Positions 18,699-52,852 are shown, counted from the first letter of the stretch. The stretch is 64,000 nucleotides of DNA from Bacillota bacterium (GCA_017889545.1 JAGFZV010000008.1:70874-134873), one strand, 5' to 3'. Program-made: numbers and translations. The notes: a model not told the origin generated them from the letters alone.

Positions 18699-18770
18699 GA
18701 AGTATAAAGTAAGACTAAGCTTCAGATGAGGTTAAAACTTCATCTGAAGCTTAGTCGCACTTATTTTAGT
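18699..18770 (-). repeat. Intergenic repeat copy A (modules M1+M2, inverted relative to copy C)
   Basis: gaagtataaagtaagact + hairpin aagcttcagatgagg/ttaaaa/cttcatctgaagctt + agtcgcacttattt; reverse complement matches aaataagtgcgactaaacttcagatgg...ccatctgaagc at 45623-45667. Confidence 0.7.
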
Positions 18771-37755: not shown

Positions 37756-37906
37756 TTGACGATTTTATGCGAATACGGTATAATATAACACATAAGCACA
37801 TACACAACAGGTATGGAACTGGCGGATCAGTGGAAATAACCACATGAACCATATCTGAAAAAGCCGACCGCCTGGGCATAATTTTATGACCCAGGCGGTC
37901 TTTTTA
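37756..37906 (+). ncRNA. Candidate small RNA or attenuator: sigma-A promoter + 115-nt transcript + intrinsic terminator upstream of pflB
   Basis: TTGACG (37756-37761), 17-nt spacer, TATAAT (37779-37784); terminator gaccgcctgggcataattttatgacccaggcggtc + TTTTT (37866-37905); no ORF with SD in between. Confidence 0.4.
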
Positions 37907-37992: not shown

Positions 37993-40221
37993 ATGAGAGA
38001 ATGGAAAAATTTTAGAGGCGGAGTTTGGGAGACAACAATTCAGGTGAGTGATTTTATTCAGCAGAATTATACCCCGTACACAGGTGACGATCAATTTTTA
38101 ACCGGCATCAGCCCCAAAACGCAAACTCTCTGGGAACGCTGCACAGAATTACTGAGCAATGAACGTAAAAAAGGCGGCGTTTTGGCAGTTGATTTCAAGA
38201 CGGTATCGTCTATTACGGCTCATCAGCCGGGCTATATTGATAAAGAACTGGAAGAAATTGTAGGATTGCAGACGGATCAACCATTAAAGCGCAGTGTTAT
38301 TGTAAACGGCGGCATCCGGATGGCGGAGCAGGCTTGCCAGGCATATGGTTATGAACTTGATCCAACAATTAGCGCTATCTATCATAACCATCGAACGACG
38401 CATAATACAGCCGTATTTCATGCTTATACGGAAGAGATGAAGCAAGCCCGACGTTTGGGCATTATTACAGGTCTCCCGGACGCCTATGGGCGTGGCCGTA
38501 TTATTGGAGACTATCGCCGGGTTGCACTATATGGAACAGACCGGCTGATTGTCGGAAAGCAAAATGATTTAAAAGCCTTGGCGAATAAACCGATGAGTGA
38601 AGAAGTCGTCAAGCTGCGCGAAGAAGTAGCGGCTCAAATTTCGGCGTTGGAGGATATGACCAAAATGGCGGCATCCTATGGATGTGCGATTGATCAGCCT
38701 GCTGCCGATGCACAGCAAGCGGTACAATGGGTCTACTTCGGTTATTTGGCAGCGATAAAAGAGCAAAACGGTGCGGCGATGTCCTTGGGCAGGGTCTCGA
38801 CCTTCCTGGATATTTATTTGGAACGTGATTTAGCTGCCGGAAAAATTTCCGAAGAACAAGCACAGGCATTAATCGACCAACTGATCATTAAGTTGCGGCT
38901 GGCACGGCATTTAAGGACTCCTGAATACAACGAATTATATGCCGGCGACCCTTTGTGGGTCACGGAAGCAATTGGCGGGATGGGCTTGGACGGGCGTACC
39001 TTAGTGACTCGCACCTCATACCGTATCCTGCAAACCTTGTACAATTTAGGCCCTGCTCCGGAGCCGAACCTGACGGTGCTATGGTCTGTGAATTTGCCGG
39101 AACAATTCAAGCAATACTGTGCGCAAGTTTCCATCAAGACCAGTGCAATTCAATATGAAAATGACGATATTATGCGTCCGGTCTATGGAGATGATTACGC
39201 AATTGCCTGTTGCGTATCGGCCATGAAAGTCGGCAAACAGATGCAGTTTTTTGGCGCCCGGGCCAATCTTGCAAAAGCGTTGTTATTGGCAATCAACGGC
39301 GGGATCGATGAAAAAAGCGGCGAACAGCTTGGTCCCAAGATGCCGCTTCCACCAGATGGAGCACTGAACTATGAACAAGTACGCGCCAATTATTCTACGG
39401 TTATAGACTGGCTGGCGGGTTTGTATGTGAATACATTGAATTTAATTCATTTCATGCATGACAAATATGCGTACGAAAGAGCCCAAATGGCGCTCCACGA
39501 TACCGAAGTCGAACGGTTAATGGCGTTTGGGGCGGCCGGATTGTCTGTAGCCGCCGATTCTCTCAGCGCGATACGTCATGCAAAAGTGAAACCCGTTCGC
39601 GACGAGCGAGGAATTGCCGTCGATTTTGCCGTAGAAGGCCAATTTCCCTGTTACGGTAACAATGATGAGCGGGTAGACGCGCTGGCCGCTGAGCTAAGCG
39701 CCGAGTTTTCCGACAAACTAAAGCAACATGCAACTTACCGCCAGGCTCGTCACACGCTGTCAATATTGACAATCACCTCGAATGTGATGTATGGCAAAAA
39801 GACCGGCGCAACCCCAGACGGTCGGGCAGCCGGTGAAGCATTTGCCCCAGGCGCCAATCCCATGCATGGGCGCGATAAGAATGGCGCATTGGCAGCGATT
39901 GCCTCCATTACCAATTTATCTTATGATGATTGCCGTGATGGGATTTCCTACACTTTTTCCATTGTGCCCGGTGCATTGGGGAAATCAAATATTGCCCGCG
40001 TTGGCAATTTGACAGCGATGCTGGATGGGTATGCAATACAGGCGGGTCACCATATCAATGTGAATGTTCTTGATCGGGCTGTGCTGAAAGATGCCATGGC
40101 TCATCCGGAAAAATACCCGCAATTGACTATTCGTGTTTCCGGCTATGCAGTTCATTTTACAAAACTGACGCCAACACAACAGGCGGAAGTGCTCAACCGG
40201 ACCTTTTATCAGGCGGTGTAA
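37993..40221 (+). CDS. pflB: Formate C-acetyltransferase (pyruvate formate-lyase, glycyl radical enzyme)
   Basis: 742 aa; C-terminal glycyl-radical motif RVSGYAVHF; adjacent activating enzyme. Confidence 0.9.
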
Positions 40222-40953
40222 ATGATGCGCGGATATTATCATTCCAGAGAAACGTTCGGAACCGTTGACGGAAAAGGGATTCGGTATGTGTTATTTTTGG
40301 CAGGATGTTCTTTAAGCTGTGTTTTTTGTCATAATCCAGATACCTGGCAACGTGGCGGTAAAACCATTACGGTGGAAGAGGTCATGGCTGATGTACTGAA
40401 ATACCAGCATTATTACAAAGCTTCCGGCGGCGGCATCACAGTAAGCGGCGGCGAACCGCTGCTGCAGCCGGAGTTTGTTGCCGCTCTTTTTCAGGAATGC
40501 CGGAAACAAGGGATCCACACCACGCTTGATACGGCCGGGTTTTGCCCGCAAGACAATCTTGAGCAGGTATTGCCGTACACGGATGAGGTATTGTTTTGTC
40601 TAAAAGTGATGGATGAAAAAAAGCATCGCCTGCTGACTGGCGCTGATAACCGTTGCATTCAGTCGAACCTGCGATTGGCAGCGGCGCAGGTTCCGACTGT
40701 CATACGCTATGTCGTGATTCCTGAGATCAATGACGAATCAGCGGATATTCAACAATTGGCCGCTTTTATCGTATCGCTTCCGCAGACGGTATCCGTCGAA
40801 TTACTCGGATATCACATTATGGGAAAGAGAAAATGGGAGGATCTCGGAATTCCGTATCGGCTTTCGTCTGTTCCTCCCGCAAATCAAAAGCATTTGGAAG
40901 CGGTATATCATTGGCTTGCAAAGAAAGAAATCGACGTTCAACCAATGCAATAG
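40222..40953 (+). CDS. pflA: Pyruvate formate-lyase activating enzyme (radical SAM)
   Basis: 243 aa; radical-SAM cluster motif CSLSCVFCHNPD; follows pflB. Confidence 0.9.
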   Translation: MMRGYYHSRETFGTVDGKGIRYVLFLAGCSLSCVFCHNPDTWQRGGKTITVEEVMADVLKYQHYYKASGGGITVSGGEPLLQPEFVAALFQECRKQGIHTTLDTAGFCPQDNLEQVLPYTDEVLFCLKVMDEKKHRLLTGADNRCIQSNLRLAAAQVPTVIRYVVIPEINDESADIQQLAAFIVSLPQTVSVELLGYHIMGKRKWEDLGIPYRLSSVPPANQKHLEAVYHWLAKKEIDVQPMQ

Positions 40954-41072: not shown

Positions 41073-42182
41073 ATGAGTACAAGTCTCGAAGTAGGGATTG
41101 TCGGTCTTCCGAATGTCGGTAAAAGCACACTATTTAATGCAATAACCAAGGCTGGAGCAGAAGCGGCCAATTATCCTTTTTGTACAATTGAACCCAATGT
41201 AGGCGTAGTGGAAGTTCCCGATGAACGCCTGGCTCGTTTGGCTGAAATATACAAGTCTAAAAAAATTATCCCAGCAACAATGCGGTTTGTGGATATTGCC
41301 GGGTTGGTAAAAGGCGCTTCCTGTGGAGAAGGCTTGGGCAATAAATTTTTATCCCATATTCGCGAAGTCGATGCTGTAGCACAGGTCGTTCGTTGCTTTT
41401 CAGACGAAAACGTAACTCATGTAGAAGGATCACTTGATCCGTTACGGGACATTGAGATTATCAATACGGAGCTATGCTTGGCAGATCTGGATACGTTGCA
41501 GAAACGGTTCGACCGCTTAAAAAAGATGCTGAAAGGCGGCGACAAGAAGGCGATCGAAGCGGAACTCGATCTTTTGGAAAGAATTAAAGTTTTGCTCGAA
41601 CAGGCGTTGCCGGCACGGCGTGTCGAGATGACGCCGGAAGAAGCGGTATTGATCCGCGACCTTAATCTGCTAACCCTCAAGCCGGCGTTATTTATTGCTA
41701 ATGTCAGCGAAGAAGAAGCGGCAGATTCTTCAGCAAATCCCCATGTTCAGGCAATCCGGGAGTATGCCGCCCAAGAGGGAGCGGAAGTGATTGTGGTCTC
41801 GGCAAAAGTAGAATCAGAGATTGCAGAGCTGACAGAAGAAGAAGCAAAAGAATTTTTACAGGAAATGGGCCTGGAAGAGTCCGGCTTGGATAAATTAATC
41901 AGGTCGAGTTTTAAACTATTAGGGTTGATGACTTTTTTGACAGCCGGGGAACAGGAAGTACGTGCATGGACAATTCGCCGGGAAACGAAGGCGCCGCAAG
42001 CAGCCGGCAAAATTCACAGCGATATTGAGCGTGGTTTTATCAGGGCTGAAATTGTTTCTTTCGCCGACTTGACTGCGTGCGGGAGCTTGAATGCAGCACG
42101 CGAAAAAGGCTTAGTCCGTCTGGAAGGCAAAGAATACATCATGCAGGATGGCGATGTGACTAATTTCCGCTTTAATGTCTAA
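41073..42182 (+). CDS. ychF: Redox-regulated ATPase YchF (Obg-family GTPase)
   Basis: [22 protein letters not shown]; C-terminal TGS domain; ATG 41073 with SD AAGGTGG. Confidence 0.9.
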
Positions 42183-42224: not shown

Positions 42225-42254
42225 TTGACAAGTGTATACTTGCGAGACTATAAT
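42225..42254 (+). promoter_or_regulatory. Sigma-A promoter of the aroF-pheA leader
   Basis: TTGACA (42225-42230), 18-nt spacer, TATAAT (42249-42254). Confidence 0.6.
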
Positions 42255-42289: not shown

Positions 42290-42448
42290 ATGAATAACAT
42301 CAAACAAGTTTGCCAACTGAATACAGTTTCTGTGTTTAACTTTTTTAGCCAAGGCTGGTTTTTTAGCGTTGGTTATTTTGCGTTTACATGGAAAACTGAA
42401 TATGGCGCAAATTTTTTGAAGTTCCTCCGTGTGGATCCTTTAACATGA
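42290..42448 (+). CDS. Putative aromatic-rich leader peptide (52 aa) of the aroF-pheA operon
   Basis: ATG 42290 preceded by SD AGGTG; MNNIKQVCQLNTVSVFNFFSQGWFFSVGYFAFTWKTEYGANFLKFLRVDPLT: 9 Phe, 2 Trp, 2 Tyr; stop TGA 42446-42448; terminator follows. Confidence 0.45.
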   Translation: MNNIKQVCQLNTVSVFNFFSQGWFFSVGYFAFTWKTEYGANFLKFLRVDPLT

Positions 42449-42477
42449 TCATTACGTAATATGAATGACATACAAGG

Positions 42478-42516
42478 CGAGGTTCTTTGGAAAAAGAACT
42501 TCGTCTTTTCTTTTGG
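42478..42516 (+). terminator. Attenuator-type intrinsic terminator in the aroF leader
   Basis: cgaggttcttt / ggaa / aaagaacttcg stem followed by TCTTTTCTTTTGG; 30 nt downstream of the leader ORF stop. Confidence 0.6.
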
Positions 42517-42608
42517 TCTTATAGAAAGTATAAATACTTTCTATGACATAAGCGCAACCAGCGGCGTATGCCGTCGCTAAAAGCTCGGCACAAGCCGGGT
42601 TTTCTAAT
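42517..42608 (+). repeat. Intergenic repeat copy B (modules M1+M3) immediately upstream of aroF
   Basis: Palindrome atagaaagtataaatactttctat (42521-42544) + acataagcgcaaccagcggcgtatgccgtcgctaaaagctcggcacaagccgggttttctaat (42546-42608), near-identical to 45687-45751. Confidence 0.7.
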
Positions 42609-42637
42609 ATCGAAAAAAATTTTAAAGGAGGATTATT

Positions 42638-43639
42638 ATGTTAGTCGTTATGAAACCCGGCGCGCCGCAAAGCGAGGTAGACAAAATGTATACGAGGTTG
42701 ATGCAAACGGGAACGGAAGTTTCGGTCATTGAAGGAACGCAGCAGAGTGTGTTCGCGTTGGTAGGAGATACGAGCAAAATAGAGGTCGGCACTTACGCTG
42801 CAAACCAGCATGTCGAAAAAATTATGCGTGTACAGCAACCGTATAAGATGGCCAGCCGGATTTTTCAGCCCCAAGATACGGTTGTTGAAATCGGCAGCTG
42901 CAAAGTTGGCGGTGGTCACAAGGCTGTGATTGCCGGGCCCTGCTCTGTTGAAAGCATTGAGCAAATGGTTCAGACCGCGATCCTGGTGAAGCAATACGGA
43001 GCAACGATGCTGCGTGGAGGCGCATACAAGCCCCGGTCATCTCCCTATAGTTTTCAGGGAACAGGAGAAGAAGGGTTGCAAATGTTGGTGAAGGCCAGAG
43101 AAGCCACCGGCCTGCCGTTTGTTACGGAAGTGATGAGCGTGGAAACGTTTGACCTAATTGAAGATTGTGCTGACCTCATACAAATTGGAACCAGAAATAT
43201 GCAAAATTTCCCACTATTAAAGCGAGCGGGCAAAAGCTCAAAGCCGATCCTTTTAAAACGCGGGATGAGTGCAACGTTGGAAGAATTTTTGATGGCGGCG
43301 GAATATATTATCGCCGGCGGAAATCGGCAAGTTATTTTGTGCGAACGCGGTATCCGGACGTTTGATAATTATACGCGCAACACGTTGGATCTTAGTGTTA
43401 TCCCGGCGATCAAAGAAGTGAGCCATCTGCCGATTATTGTTGATCCAAGCCATGCATGCGGCAAATGGTCAATGGTTGAACCGCTTGCCAAAGCGGCTAT
43501 GGCGGTTGGAGCCGATGGACTGATTATTGAAGTTCACCATCAGCCGGAAAAAGCGCTTTGTGACGGAGCGCAATCTCTCAAGCCAGAGAAATTCGGAAAA
43601 TTGATGACTTCCGTACAGCGAATTATGGAAGCGGTATAA
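42638..43639 (+). CDS. aroF: 3-deoxy-7-phosphoheptulonate (DAHP) synthase, type I-beta with N-terminal regulatory domain
   Basis: 333 aa; N-terminal ferredoxin-like regulatory domain, then KDO8P/DAHP synthase TIM barrel (...[11 protein letters not shown]..., ...IVDPSHA...). Confidence 0.85.
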
Positions 43640-45483: not shown

Positions 45484-45490
45484 AACAAAA

Positions 45491-45540
45491 GCAAAACCGC
45501 GAGAGCATATCAATAGGATGCTCTCGCGGTTTTGCTTTTG
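45491..45540. terminator. Bidirectional intrinsic terminator after eamA
   Basis: aaaaccgcgagagcat / loop / atgctctcgcggtttt followed by GCTTTTG. Confidence 0.8.
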
Positions 45541-45544
45541 TTTA

Positions 45545-45751
45545 GTACACCAGAAAGTATAAATTTTCCTCTACGCACAGACTGTAAGATCCCTTACGAA
45601 GGGATCAACAGTCTGTAACTCGAAATAAGTGCGACTAAACTTCAGATGGCGGTAACCATCTGAAGCAAGCCTTCTATATCTGGTGTACATAAGTGCAACC
45701 AGCGGCTTCCGCCATCGCTATAAAAGCTCGGCGCAAGCCGGGTTTTCTAAT
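45545..45751 (+). repeat. Composite intergenic repeat copy C (10-bp inverted ends, M1, 40-nt palindrome, M2 hairpin, M3 with terminator-like hairpin)
   Basis: GTACACCAGA (45545-45554) and TCTGGTGTAC (45679-45688); palindrome acagactgtaagatcccttacgaagggatcaacagtctgt (45577-45616); M2 hairpin cttcagatgg/cggtaa/ccatctgaag (45640-45665); M3 45687-45751. Confidence 0.7.
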
Positions 45752-52523: not shown

Positions 52524-52852
52524 AGGGGAATCCCTTCAAGCCCTTCCGTCTCAGTCACTTCGGATCCAAGCGGATAAAAAATTTCCAGATTACCATATGA
52601 TCAGATATGGCGTACCGTACATTGTGCAGCTCGCATGGATGCCGCCAAAATACACCAATATCAGCCTAAAAGTAACATGGGTAAAGTATTTTGTCAATAC
52701 AATCGCGAAAGATCAGAAAAAAATTTGCATTTTCTTTTCTGATGGTGCTATAATAATTAAGTCTAGGACAACATTATAGGTTTCAAATTTCGGTTTGTGA
52801 ACCTTCCCTGCCCCGCTTGAGGGGCCATTAGTCCAGAGGAGGAGGTGATTTC

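Follow-up and report, generated by a model that had tools for sequence, protein, structure and literature searches.

A dispersed modular repeat inserted between the leader terminator and aroF in a Bacillota bacterium

The described system closest in concept to the element reported here is SPRITE, a pneumococcal repeat of ~105 nt that resembles a Rho-independent terminator and is enriched near the 3' ends of coding sequences (PMC3049150, 2011). SPRITEs are small, non-coding and interspersed, and their predicted RNA consists of one 18-bp duplex followed by a long U-rich tract, thought to act, or to have been co-opted, as a terminator. A mosaic build of hairpin modules, any of which may be absent or repeated, is found in two other kinds of intergenic repeat, the pneumococcal BOX elements (boxA, boxB(n), boxC), whose A and C modules form a pair of terminal inverted repeats, and the enterobacterial BIMEs. 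BIME/REP units are imperfect palindromes of 20-40 nt that carry GTAG or CGTC heads and are linked to RAYT transposases (see also PMC3733652). A repeat of ~155 bp in the Bacillus cereus group, bcr1, is described as flanked by 5-bp direct repeats (Okstad 2004, Klevan 2007; PMC3184786). As presented there, bcr1 is a non-autonomous Firmicute repeat whose positions are not conserved between relatives and whose independent stem-loops are kept by compensatory changes. The ribozymes known as group IIC introns are 0.7-2 kb long, begin with GUGYG, contain domains V and VI and usually encode a reverse transcriptase. Members such as B.h.I1 are reported to follow closely on the motif of an intrinsic terminator (Toor et al., 2006, PMC1702495). 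They are described as inserting in one orientation, 3' of an inverted repeat followed by T's, and without target duplication. Lastly, elements of the IS200/IS605 family have neither terminal inverted repeats nor target duplications, carry hairpins at their ends and insert in one orientation beside a short sequence.

The element that we set against this background lies upstream of aroF in a genome labelled Bacillota bacterium, from an organism known solely through metagenomes; the window, i.e. the whole stretch of DNA analysed, spans 64,000 nt (GCA_017889545.1 JAGFZV010000008.1:70874-134873). The aroF leader region is bounded upstream by the end of ychF at 42182 and contains a sigma-70-type promoter on the plus strand (TTGACA-18-TATAAT, 42225-42254) that matches the consensus at 12/12 positions and is kept in two orthologous loci, L097 and L098. 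The promoter is followed by a plus-strand ORF of 52 aa (42290-42448), rich in Phe, Trp and Tyr (FNFFSQGWFFSVGYFAFTW), which provides the context of the attenuator and is annotated as a gene in L003 and L097, and then by the intrinsic terminator of the leader, or attenuator (42474-42516, plus strand), with a 15-bp stem at 42474-42507 and a T-rich tail reaching 42516. This terminator folds at -19.9 kcal/mol (z -5.0), and its stem covaries among the orthologues (GGCGAGG/CTTCGTC, GGCGAGG/CCTCGCC, GGCGGGG/CCCCGCC, GAAGAGG/CTTCTTC). The last few T and G residues of its tail (~42510-42516) are probably part of the inserted element. Judged from the sequence, the ORF and the covarying terminator look like a Negativicutes leader-peptide attenuator for aromatic amino acids; alternatively, the conservation of the ORF at the nucleotide level could reflect an RNA element. 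The ORF is nearly base-for-base identical in L097, L098 and L099, while the AroF proteins of these loci are only 82-89% identical. The aroF RBS (AAAGGAGG, 42624-42631) is found 16 nt past the element, with RBS and CDS together covering 42624-43639 on the plus strand, and the ATG at 42638 is 32 nt beyond the tail of the last hairpin of the element. The gene encodes a DAHP synthase of 333 aa (Pfam DAHP_synth_1).

Copy 1 of the element occupies 42511-42608 on the plus strand, between the leader terminator and the aroF RBS, and is a short form made up of a hairpin (M1), a 5' box and two further hairpins (H2 and H3). M1 (42519-42546, plus strand) has a 12-bp stem, and its loop and arm hold the family motif AGAAAGTATAA. 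The 5' box, ATAAGCGCAAC (family consensus ATAAGTGCAAC), and the GC-rich H2 together cover 42548-42578 on the same strand, with the H2 hairpin at 42561-42574 and an outer stem (42551-42554/42575-42578) closed by the 5' box. H3 (42580-42608, plus strand) is a terminator-like hairpin, AAAGCUCGGC-ACAA-GCCGGGUUUU, and the CUAAU that comes after it is the exact 3' end of the element. Its parts are CTCGGC (42584-42589), ACAA (42590-42593), GCCGGG (42594-42599) and TTTTCT (42600-42605), and the stem can be extended to 10 bp (42580-42603). The 94-nt segment folds at -36 kcal/mol, as against -17.9 +/- 2.8 for shuffled sequences (z -6.5), and the window contains two instances of the 26-nt H3 pattern, with 0.00 expected. 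A first-pass annotation of this stretch had placed the leader terminator, M1 and a module M3 (H2 and H3) with its T-tail upstream of aroF, and we recovered each of them to within ~1 nt. The 3' arm of H3 (GCCGGGUUU, 42594-42602) is also fully complementary to aroF codons 5-8 (AAACCCGGC, 42653-42661), and this pairing is part of the centroid fold predicted for 42440-42665, in which the RBS is enclosed. The 9-nt complementarity is probably due to chance (p roughly 0.02) and is not a feature of the family.

Rather than a structure specific to aroF, 42511-42608 is a copy of a dispersed, non-coding, modular repeat. A second copy, of a long form, is present in the window at 45541-45751 (plus strand), directly 3' of the terminator of an EamA-family gene (45484-45540); its M1 arms enclose a module of ~110 nt with two hairpins (M2), which is followed by H2 and by an H3 that is 97% identical to that of copy 1. 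A covariance model trained on 20 copies from a Negativicutes MAG scored 98.4 bits (E 3e-20) at 42511-42608 and 76.2 bits at 45647-45751, and nothing else in the window was significant. When the H3 pattern AAAGCTCGGCNNNNGCCGGGTTTT was scanned across one genome per species, 90 stretches were obtained. MAG NZ_DATLJA01 (labelled Desulfitobacterium sp. SMAG_U13683) accounts for about 56 matches and the uncultured Negativicutes MAG CAYUNV01 for about 31, so that the family numbers at least 56 and at least 31 copies there; both large sets come from MAGs of uncertain label and completeness. The remainder are one true copy in Caproiciproducens sp. R1 and a handful of unrelated chance terminators. Many copies lie ~112 nt from contig ends, which points to the repeat breaking k-141 (short-read) assemblies. 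Rfam searches of the window, both element forms and eight related loci, at gathering as well as permissive thresholds, returned no match to the element beyond chance level (e.g. RsaA, E 0.06).

The modules of the family are the M1 hairpin, the 5' box with H2, and the H3 hairpin followed by UUUUCUAA, while M2 and M4 are optional; M2 is found in the M1 loop, and M4 (~130 nt) between H2 and H3 (L009, L058). The canonical Negativicutes form reads (T)TTAGTACACCAGAAAGTATAAcATTTTATCTGGTGTAC / ATAAGTGCAACC / AGCGGCttccGCCGtCGCT / AAAA / AGCTCGGCgcaaGCCGGGTTTT / CTAA, and solo H3 hairpins occur at gene ends (L062, L014). The same boxes are present in MAG NZ_DATLJA01 (ACTAACAGAAAGTATAA..., ATAAGTGCAAC, one or more hairpins, ...GTTTTCTTTAT). 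Copies in this MAG (L007-L090; e.g. L042 1638-2125, L011 and L090) are often stacked head-to-tail, and its internal arrays repeat a unit of ~80 nt (CCTACGATGCAAGTAGTTAAGTCCGGCAGGATAAGGCGACTAAGGCC...GGCCAAGTCTTCTTTAT), each new unit coming after the T-rich tail of the one before. In a set of 20 short copies, compensatory changes were seen at six pairs of the M1 stem (for instance A-U in 12 and C-G in 7 copies, or C-G in 10, U-A in 5 and G-C in 1). Since the H3 sequence was fixed by the search pattern, covariation of H3 is read from a sister subfamily at the same loci, in which CTTGGC/GCCAAG replaces CTCGGC/GCCGGG with the TTTTCT tail unchanged, a difference of one compensatory and one wobble-to-Watson-Crick change. 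For H2, only one-sided changes were seen, and its pairing register is ambiguous between the subfamilies. Several pairs are conserved as G.U, so the fold is good on the plus strand only. The motif AGAAAGTATAA (42524-42534 and 45552-45562 in the window) is kept in both lineages, with or without the M1 hairpin. The AGAAAG of the M1 loop can pair, with G.U, to a T/U-tract, which suggests a part in target recognition or, alternatively, a -10-like box.

Orthologues of aroF, retrieved through the protein, provide filled and empty sites. The promoter, leader ORF and terminator are shared by L098 (87% AroF identity) and L099 (82%), with the RBS ~20 nt after the T-tract, and the leaders of these two loci contain neither M1 nor M3. 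L097 (89%) holds the first ~45 nt of an element with a different M1 subtype (GTCCAGCACATCAGTAAGTACAAAATTTT...) at its aroF site (2432-2480) and no H2 or H3 there, which suggests either an independent hit on the same attenuator terminator or a loss of the terminator part by deletion. L095 and L096 (91%), the contigs listed for their aroF allele, have the element before aroF and begin inside the repeat; their H3 (24-50) reads GCTCTGCgcaaGCCGGGCTTTCAAA, with a mismatch in the stem and TTTT changed to CTTT, and their H2 is canonical. The same two loci are empty at the site of copy 2 (GCTTTTG|AGAAGC, where the window has GCTTTT-GTTTAGTACACC...GGGTTTTCTAAT-GAGAAG), and copy 2 is a precise insert of 211 nt with an ambiguity of 1 nt. 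At this site, the single exactly resolved filled/empty pair, we found no target-site duplication. Terminal inverted repeats were likewise not found: the ends, TTTAGTAC... and ...TTTTCTAAT, are complementary over at most 4-5 nt, a match that the ends in the second lineage (ACTAACAG... and ...TTTTCTTTAT) do not share. A metagenome scan for further aroF leaders with the loose pattern AAAAAGAACYYCGYCTTTT gave none among the matches listed (0/115 loci, blastn). One of the two readings offered by the first-pass annotation, that a repeat had inserted into a regulatory leader, is thus supported: L098 and L099 pass from terminator through ~20 nt to RBS, and the element recurs in dozens of unrelated places.

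Nearly every copy lies directly 3' of a host hairpin and T-run and has the same orientation as these. For 26 Negativicutes-type copies, the mean folding energy of the 55 nt of upstream flank is -21.8 kcal/mol, as compared with -9.7 kcal/mol for 2000 random 55-mers from the same loci (p 1.5e-11, Mann-Whitney), and 73% of these flanks fall under the 5th percentile of the control. The last 12 nt upstream contain 6.2 T against 3.3, and the downstream flanks of these copies are ordinary (-9.6 kcal/mol). A similar shift was observed for 34 array-initial copies of the second MAG (-16.2 vs -8.8 kcal/mol, p 4e-9). Flank folding energy was used here in place of a perfect-stem terminator detector, which under-called and chose the wrong M1 anchors. 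By a crude ORF caller, the upstream neighbour gene is co-oriented with the element in 25/31 and 36/46 cases. Terminator and M1 are separated by 0-6 bases, mostly T-rich, which makes for a ragged 5' junction, and the 3' end is exact (...TTTTCTAA or ...TTTTCTTTA). Terminator adjacency is common to the Negativicutes and to a MAG labelled with the name of a Clostridia genus, Desulfitobacterium.

No ORF was found within the elements, in which all M1-to-H3 distances are <400 nt. An all-vs-all BLASTP of ORFs >=150 aa from ~650 kb of flanks detected no multi-copy transposase-like ORFs, and neither a transposase, recombinase or reverse transcriptase linked to the family nor an autonomous IS with the same ends was found in these flanks; IS copies are usually missing from MAG assemblies. 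Viral contigs gave no H3 matches, and their 13 matches to the 5' box were all chance hits in coding sequence. With no linked enzyme, it is only the presence/absence polymorphism and the copy number that argue for mobility, and the repeat would be mobilised in trans. Selection alone could explain why copies avoid genes but not why they sit a few bases from a T-tract, which points to targeted insertion. It is possible, if unlikely, that the family represents a previously undescribed terminator-homing mobile element, a cassette of ~100 nt with no ORF, inverted repeats or target duplication, that recognises a hairpin and T-tract and inserts just behind them. The ragged, T-rich 5' junction, the exact 3' end and the AGAAAG motif would fit an RNA-guided or T-tract-primed (retrotransposition-like) mechanism, with the enzyme encoded away from the element.

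How does the element compare with the systems introduced above? Like SPRITE, it is small, non-coding and interspersed in Firmicutes, it is enriched near the 3' ends of coding sequences, its predicted RNA ends in a stem and a U-rich tract, and a role as a terminator, original or co-opted, is presumed for both. It differs in having at least three short hairpins, a modular build and a short U-tract; abutment to an existing terminator and insertion without target duplication are not mentioned in the SPRITE passages compared, the comparison being one of descriptions. With BOX and BIMEs it shares the intergenic mosaic, here of M1, M2, H2, M4 and H3 and of units consisting of ATAAGTGCAAC, a hairpin and a T-rich tail, but it has no counterpart to the terminal inverted repeats of BOX. 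No GTAG or CGTC head was seen in its units, which begin with ATAAGTGCAAC and have varied hairpins, nor was a link to a RAYT gene seen, and this sets it apart from REP/BIME. It resembles bcr1 in being non-autonomous, in its non-conserved positions and in the compensatory changes of its stems, whereas the 5-bp direct repeats of bcr1 (TTTAT) have no equivalent at the single insertion that is resolved to the base. Copies in the MAG labelled Desulfitobacterium have a constant TTTA(T) at the right end next to a left flank that varies (TTTAT, TTTGT, TTCAT, TTTTT and others), so that the right-hand TTTA(T) belongs to the element and does not represent a duplication of the bcr1 type.

The insertion habit of the element, in one orientation, 3' of an inverted repeat and T's and without target duplication, recalls what is described for group IIC introns. 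We rejected this class, because the element is ~100-210 nt long, starts with TTTAGUAC, has no ribozyme domains and gave no Intron_gpII or group-II match at any threshold. Hairpins near the ends and a single orientation, here beside T-rich sequence, are also found in the PATEs of IS200/IS605. In that family, however, the left and right hairpins are alike and the 5' junction is exact, whereas here M1 bears no relation to H3 and the 5' ends are ragged; moreover, no TnpA/TnpB partner of the element was found, and it fits the IS200/IS605-derived miniatures only loosely. Length (98-211 nt), lack of coding capacity, >85 copies in two MAGs and empty sites for both copies in the window are as in a MITE, but the element lacks the terminal inverted repeats of that class and, at the one exactly resolved filled/empty pair, its target-site duplication. 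A cis-regulatory RNA of aroF would be conserved with the gene, and the element is absent from L098 and L099, truncated in L097 and found beside unrelated genes. We file it with the small interspersed structured repeats, as one with an unusual terminator-homing habit.

Regarding the consequences for aroF, the first-pass annotation held that transcripts from the 42225 promoter must pass two successive terminators, or else that aroF has an unseen promoter in the last 30 nt. The H3 stem CUCGGC-ACAA-GCCGGG is held by 6-7 strong pairs, or by as many as 10 when A-U and G.U are counted, and has a folding energy of -8.6 to -10.6 kcal/mol, and on the transcribed strand it is a GC-rich stem-loop as in an intrinsic terminator. 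Its U-tract (UUUUCUAAU) has four consecutive U, where an intrinsic terminator typically has at least 5-7 U-rich positions, with a tail score of 3.0-3.6 versus 4.2-4.5 for neighbouring host terminators. A terminator score d of the d'Aubenton-Carafa type, which was combined with modern energy parameters and is indicative only, came to ~+1 for H3, +19 for the leader terminator, +28 for the EamA terminator and -69 for the mutated H3 of L095. H3 was not called by a simple terminator scan, because too few T are left after the longest possible stem. Two terminators in succession are thus correct in form, with the second one marginal by sequence criteria. The unseen promoter, on the other hand, finds no support. 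No promoter was found inside copy 1 or the canonical copy (L056), and the only promoter-like match after the element (42610-42639, 9/12) has a -10 box that overlaps the aroF ATG. The last ~30 nt before aroF are the ancestral spacer between terminator and RBS, and as the terminator leads directly to the RBS in the empty sites, there was never a promoter in this stretch. Since the 42225 promoter is the only one found, aroF-pheA would be read from it through the attenuator and then through the element.

At least eight copies of the family (12 by the crude ORF caller) are located 15-45 nt upstream of a co-directional gene start or RBS, so that read-through is presumably common or substantial, and the element may be nearly neutral. 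Placed in series with the attenuator, H3 would be a second terminator of weak and partial effect, and the element would be mildly costly or nearly neutral for aroF. That two sister lineages have a lost or damaged H3 agrees with a small cost, and also with drift. As a whole, the explanation that we consider likely is that a non-autonomous, terminator-adjacent repeat has inserted into the aroF leader and forms a weak extra terminator there; it builds on the observed family membership, filled and empty sites, terminator association and stem covariation. The repeat would be a non-autonomous mobile element whose new copies arise right behind the T-tract of an intrinsic terminator and always point the same way, without target-site duplication or terminal inverted repeats. 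In this lineage, a copy would have landed behind the aroF leader terminator, ~20 nt before the aroF RBS. Transcription of aroF would still start only at the 42225 promoter, and the transcripts that escape the attenuator would cross ~100 nt of additional structured RNA with H3 at its end. This hairpin, which is short and GC-rich and has only four U, would lower aroF-pheA expression without abolishing it.

The conserved parts of the element could also be read differently, namely as small RNA genes, each with its own promoter, in which case the copy near aroF would be an independent sRNA gene and not a piece of the leader. The GTATAA(A/C) of M1 would serve as the -10 box and the host T-tract as a poor -35 box, giving an RNA of ~70 nt that ends at H3. 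This would account for the conservation of AGAAAGTATAA in both lineages, including copies with a different M1 stem or none, for the hairpin and U-run that end each unit and for the strand-specific fold with its G.U pairs, and the L024 junction, alone among the copies, gives a promoter-like site with a 10/12 match (TTAACA-16-TAAAAT). We nevertheless regard sRNA genes as improbable, as neither copy 1 nor the canonical L056 copy contains a promoter-like site, the -35 position lies in host sequence that varies from copy to copy, there is no need for sRNA genes to abut terminators within 0-10 nt, and Rfam returned no match.

If H3 were an efficient terminator, the insertion would have largely silenced aroF-pheA, with the pathway being fed by another DAHP synthase or by uptake. 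The GC-rich stem followed by UUUU, in series with the attenuator, agrees with such an effect, and so does the fate of H3 in two related lineages, lost in L097 and mutated in L095, as would be expected of a harmful hairpin. However, the three substitutions within 26 nt of L095 fit neutral divergence at ~90% identity, and the few strong pairs, the short U-tract and the marginal score of H3 do not suggest efficient termination. Furthermore, aroF and pheA are intact, AroF is identical in four independent metagenome contigs with an intact element, and many family copies lie just upstream of co-directional genes. We find silencing of the operon quite improbable.

A further alternative would be that the repeats are not mobile at all, but back-up terminators or 3'-end modules that the host maintains and that spread by recombination or gene conversion. 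Their strict co-orientation with upstream genes, the terminator adjacency and the failure to find a transposase are in line with host modules, and solo H3 is apparently the sole terminator of some genes (L062, L014). Yet the host terminator sequences differ, leaving no homology to drive conversion into new sites, and copy 2 is a precise 211-nt insertion relative to an otherwise collinear empty site. Tandem and nested copies, the high copy number with its assembly breaks and the presence of two element subtypes at the same aroF site in sister lineages also speak against host maintenance, which we take to be very improbable.

Scarcely credible, finally, is the other reading of the first-pass annotation, that M3 is itself a regulatory RNA domain dedicated to the aroF leader, for example a ligand- or protein-responsive second attenuator: the position of M3 between the attenuator and the regulated gene, an alternative H2/H3 pairing (CGGCUU with AAGCCG in copy 2) and the complementarity of the H3 arm to aroF codons 5-8 would suit such a role, but the element is not linked to aroF, the empty leaders of L098 and L099 and the truncated one of L097 contradict it, >80 unrelated contexts including convergent intergenic regions contain the element, no Rfam family matches it, and the 9-nt complementarity is of a kind expected by chance at ~0.02 and is not shared by the family.

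Positions 42517-42608 should thus not be read as regulatory design of aroF; the gene has one promoter and one ancestral attenuator, to which a recently acquired repeat adds a weak hairpin and U-tract in series. Terminator-like repeats are already known from SPRITE, and a family wedged a few nucleotides behind terminators in two distant lineages would be new. The family can also form nested copies and pile up behind its own terminator. Should the targeting be active, this would be the first element outside the group IIC introns that uses intrinsic terminators as safe harbours, and its members would constitute a natural set of modular terminator cassettes. For genome assembly, the many copies at contig ends indicate that such repeats interrupt short-read contigs.

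A few additional features were noted in the course of the analysis. The MAG that contains L081 carries part of a maturase ORF of a group II intron together with domains V/VI (RF00029, 40.8 bits) at L081 3412-3840; this one intron is unrelated to the family and not adjacent to a repeat copy. In the window, an isolated M2-type module is located on the minus strand at 18700-18770 (ATAAGTGCGAC, then a hairpin CTTCAGATG...CATCTGAAG). A ZMP/ZTP riboswitch (pfl motif; 37805-37884, plus strand, 61.4 bits) is found directly 5' of the pyruvate formate-lyase gene (37993-40221), which is followed by the gene for its activase (40222-40953), and a pan motif match on the minus strand (52542-52648) scores 44.6 bits against a gathering score of 36.2.
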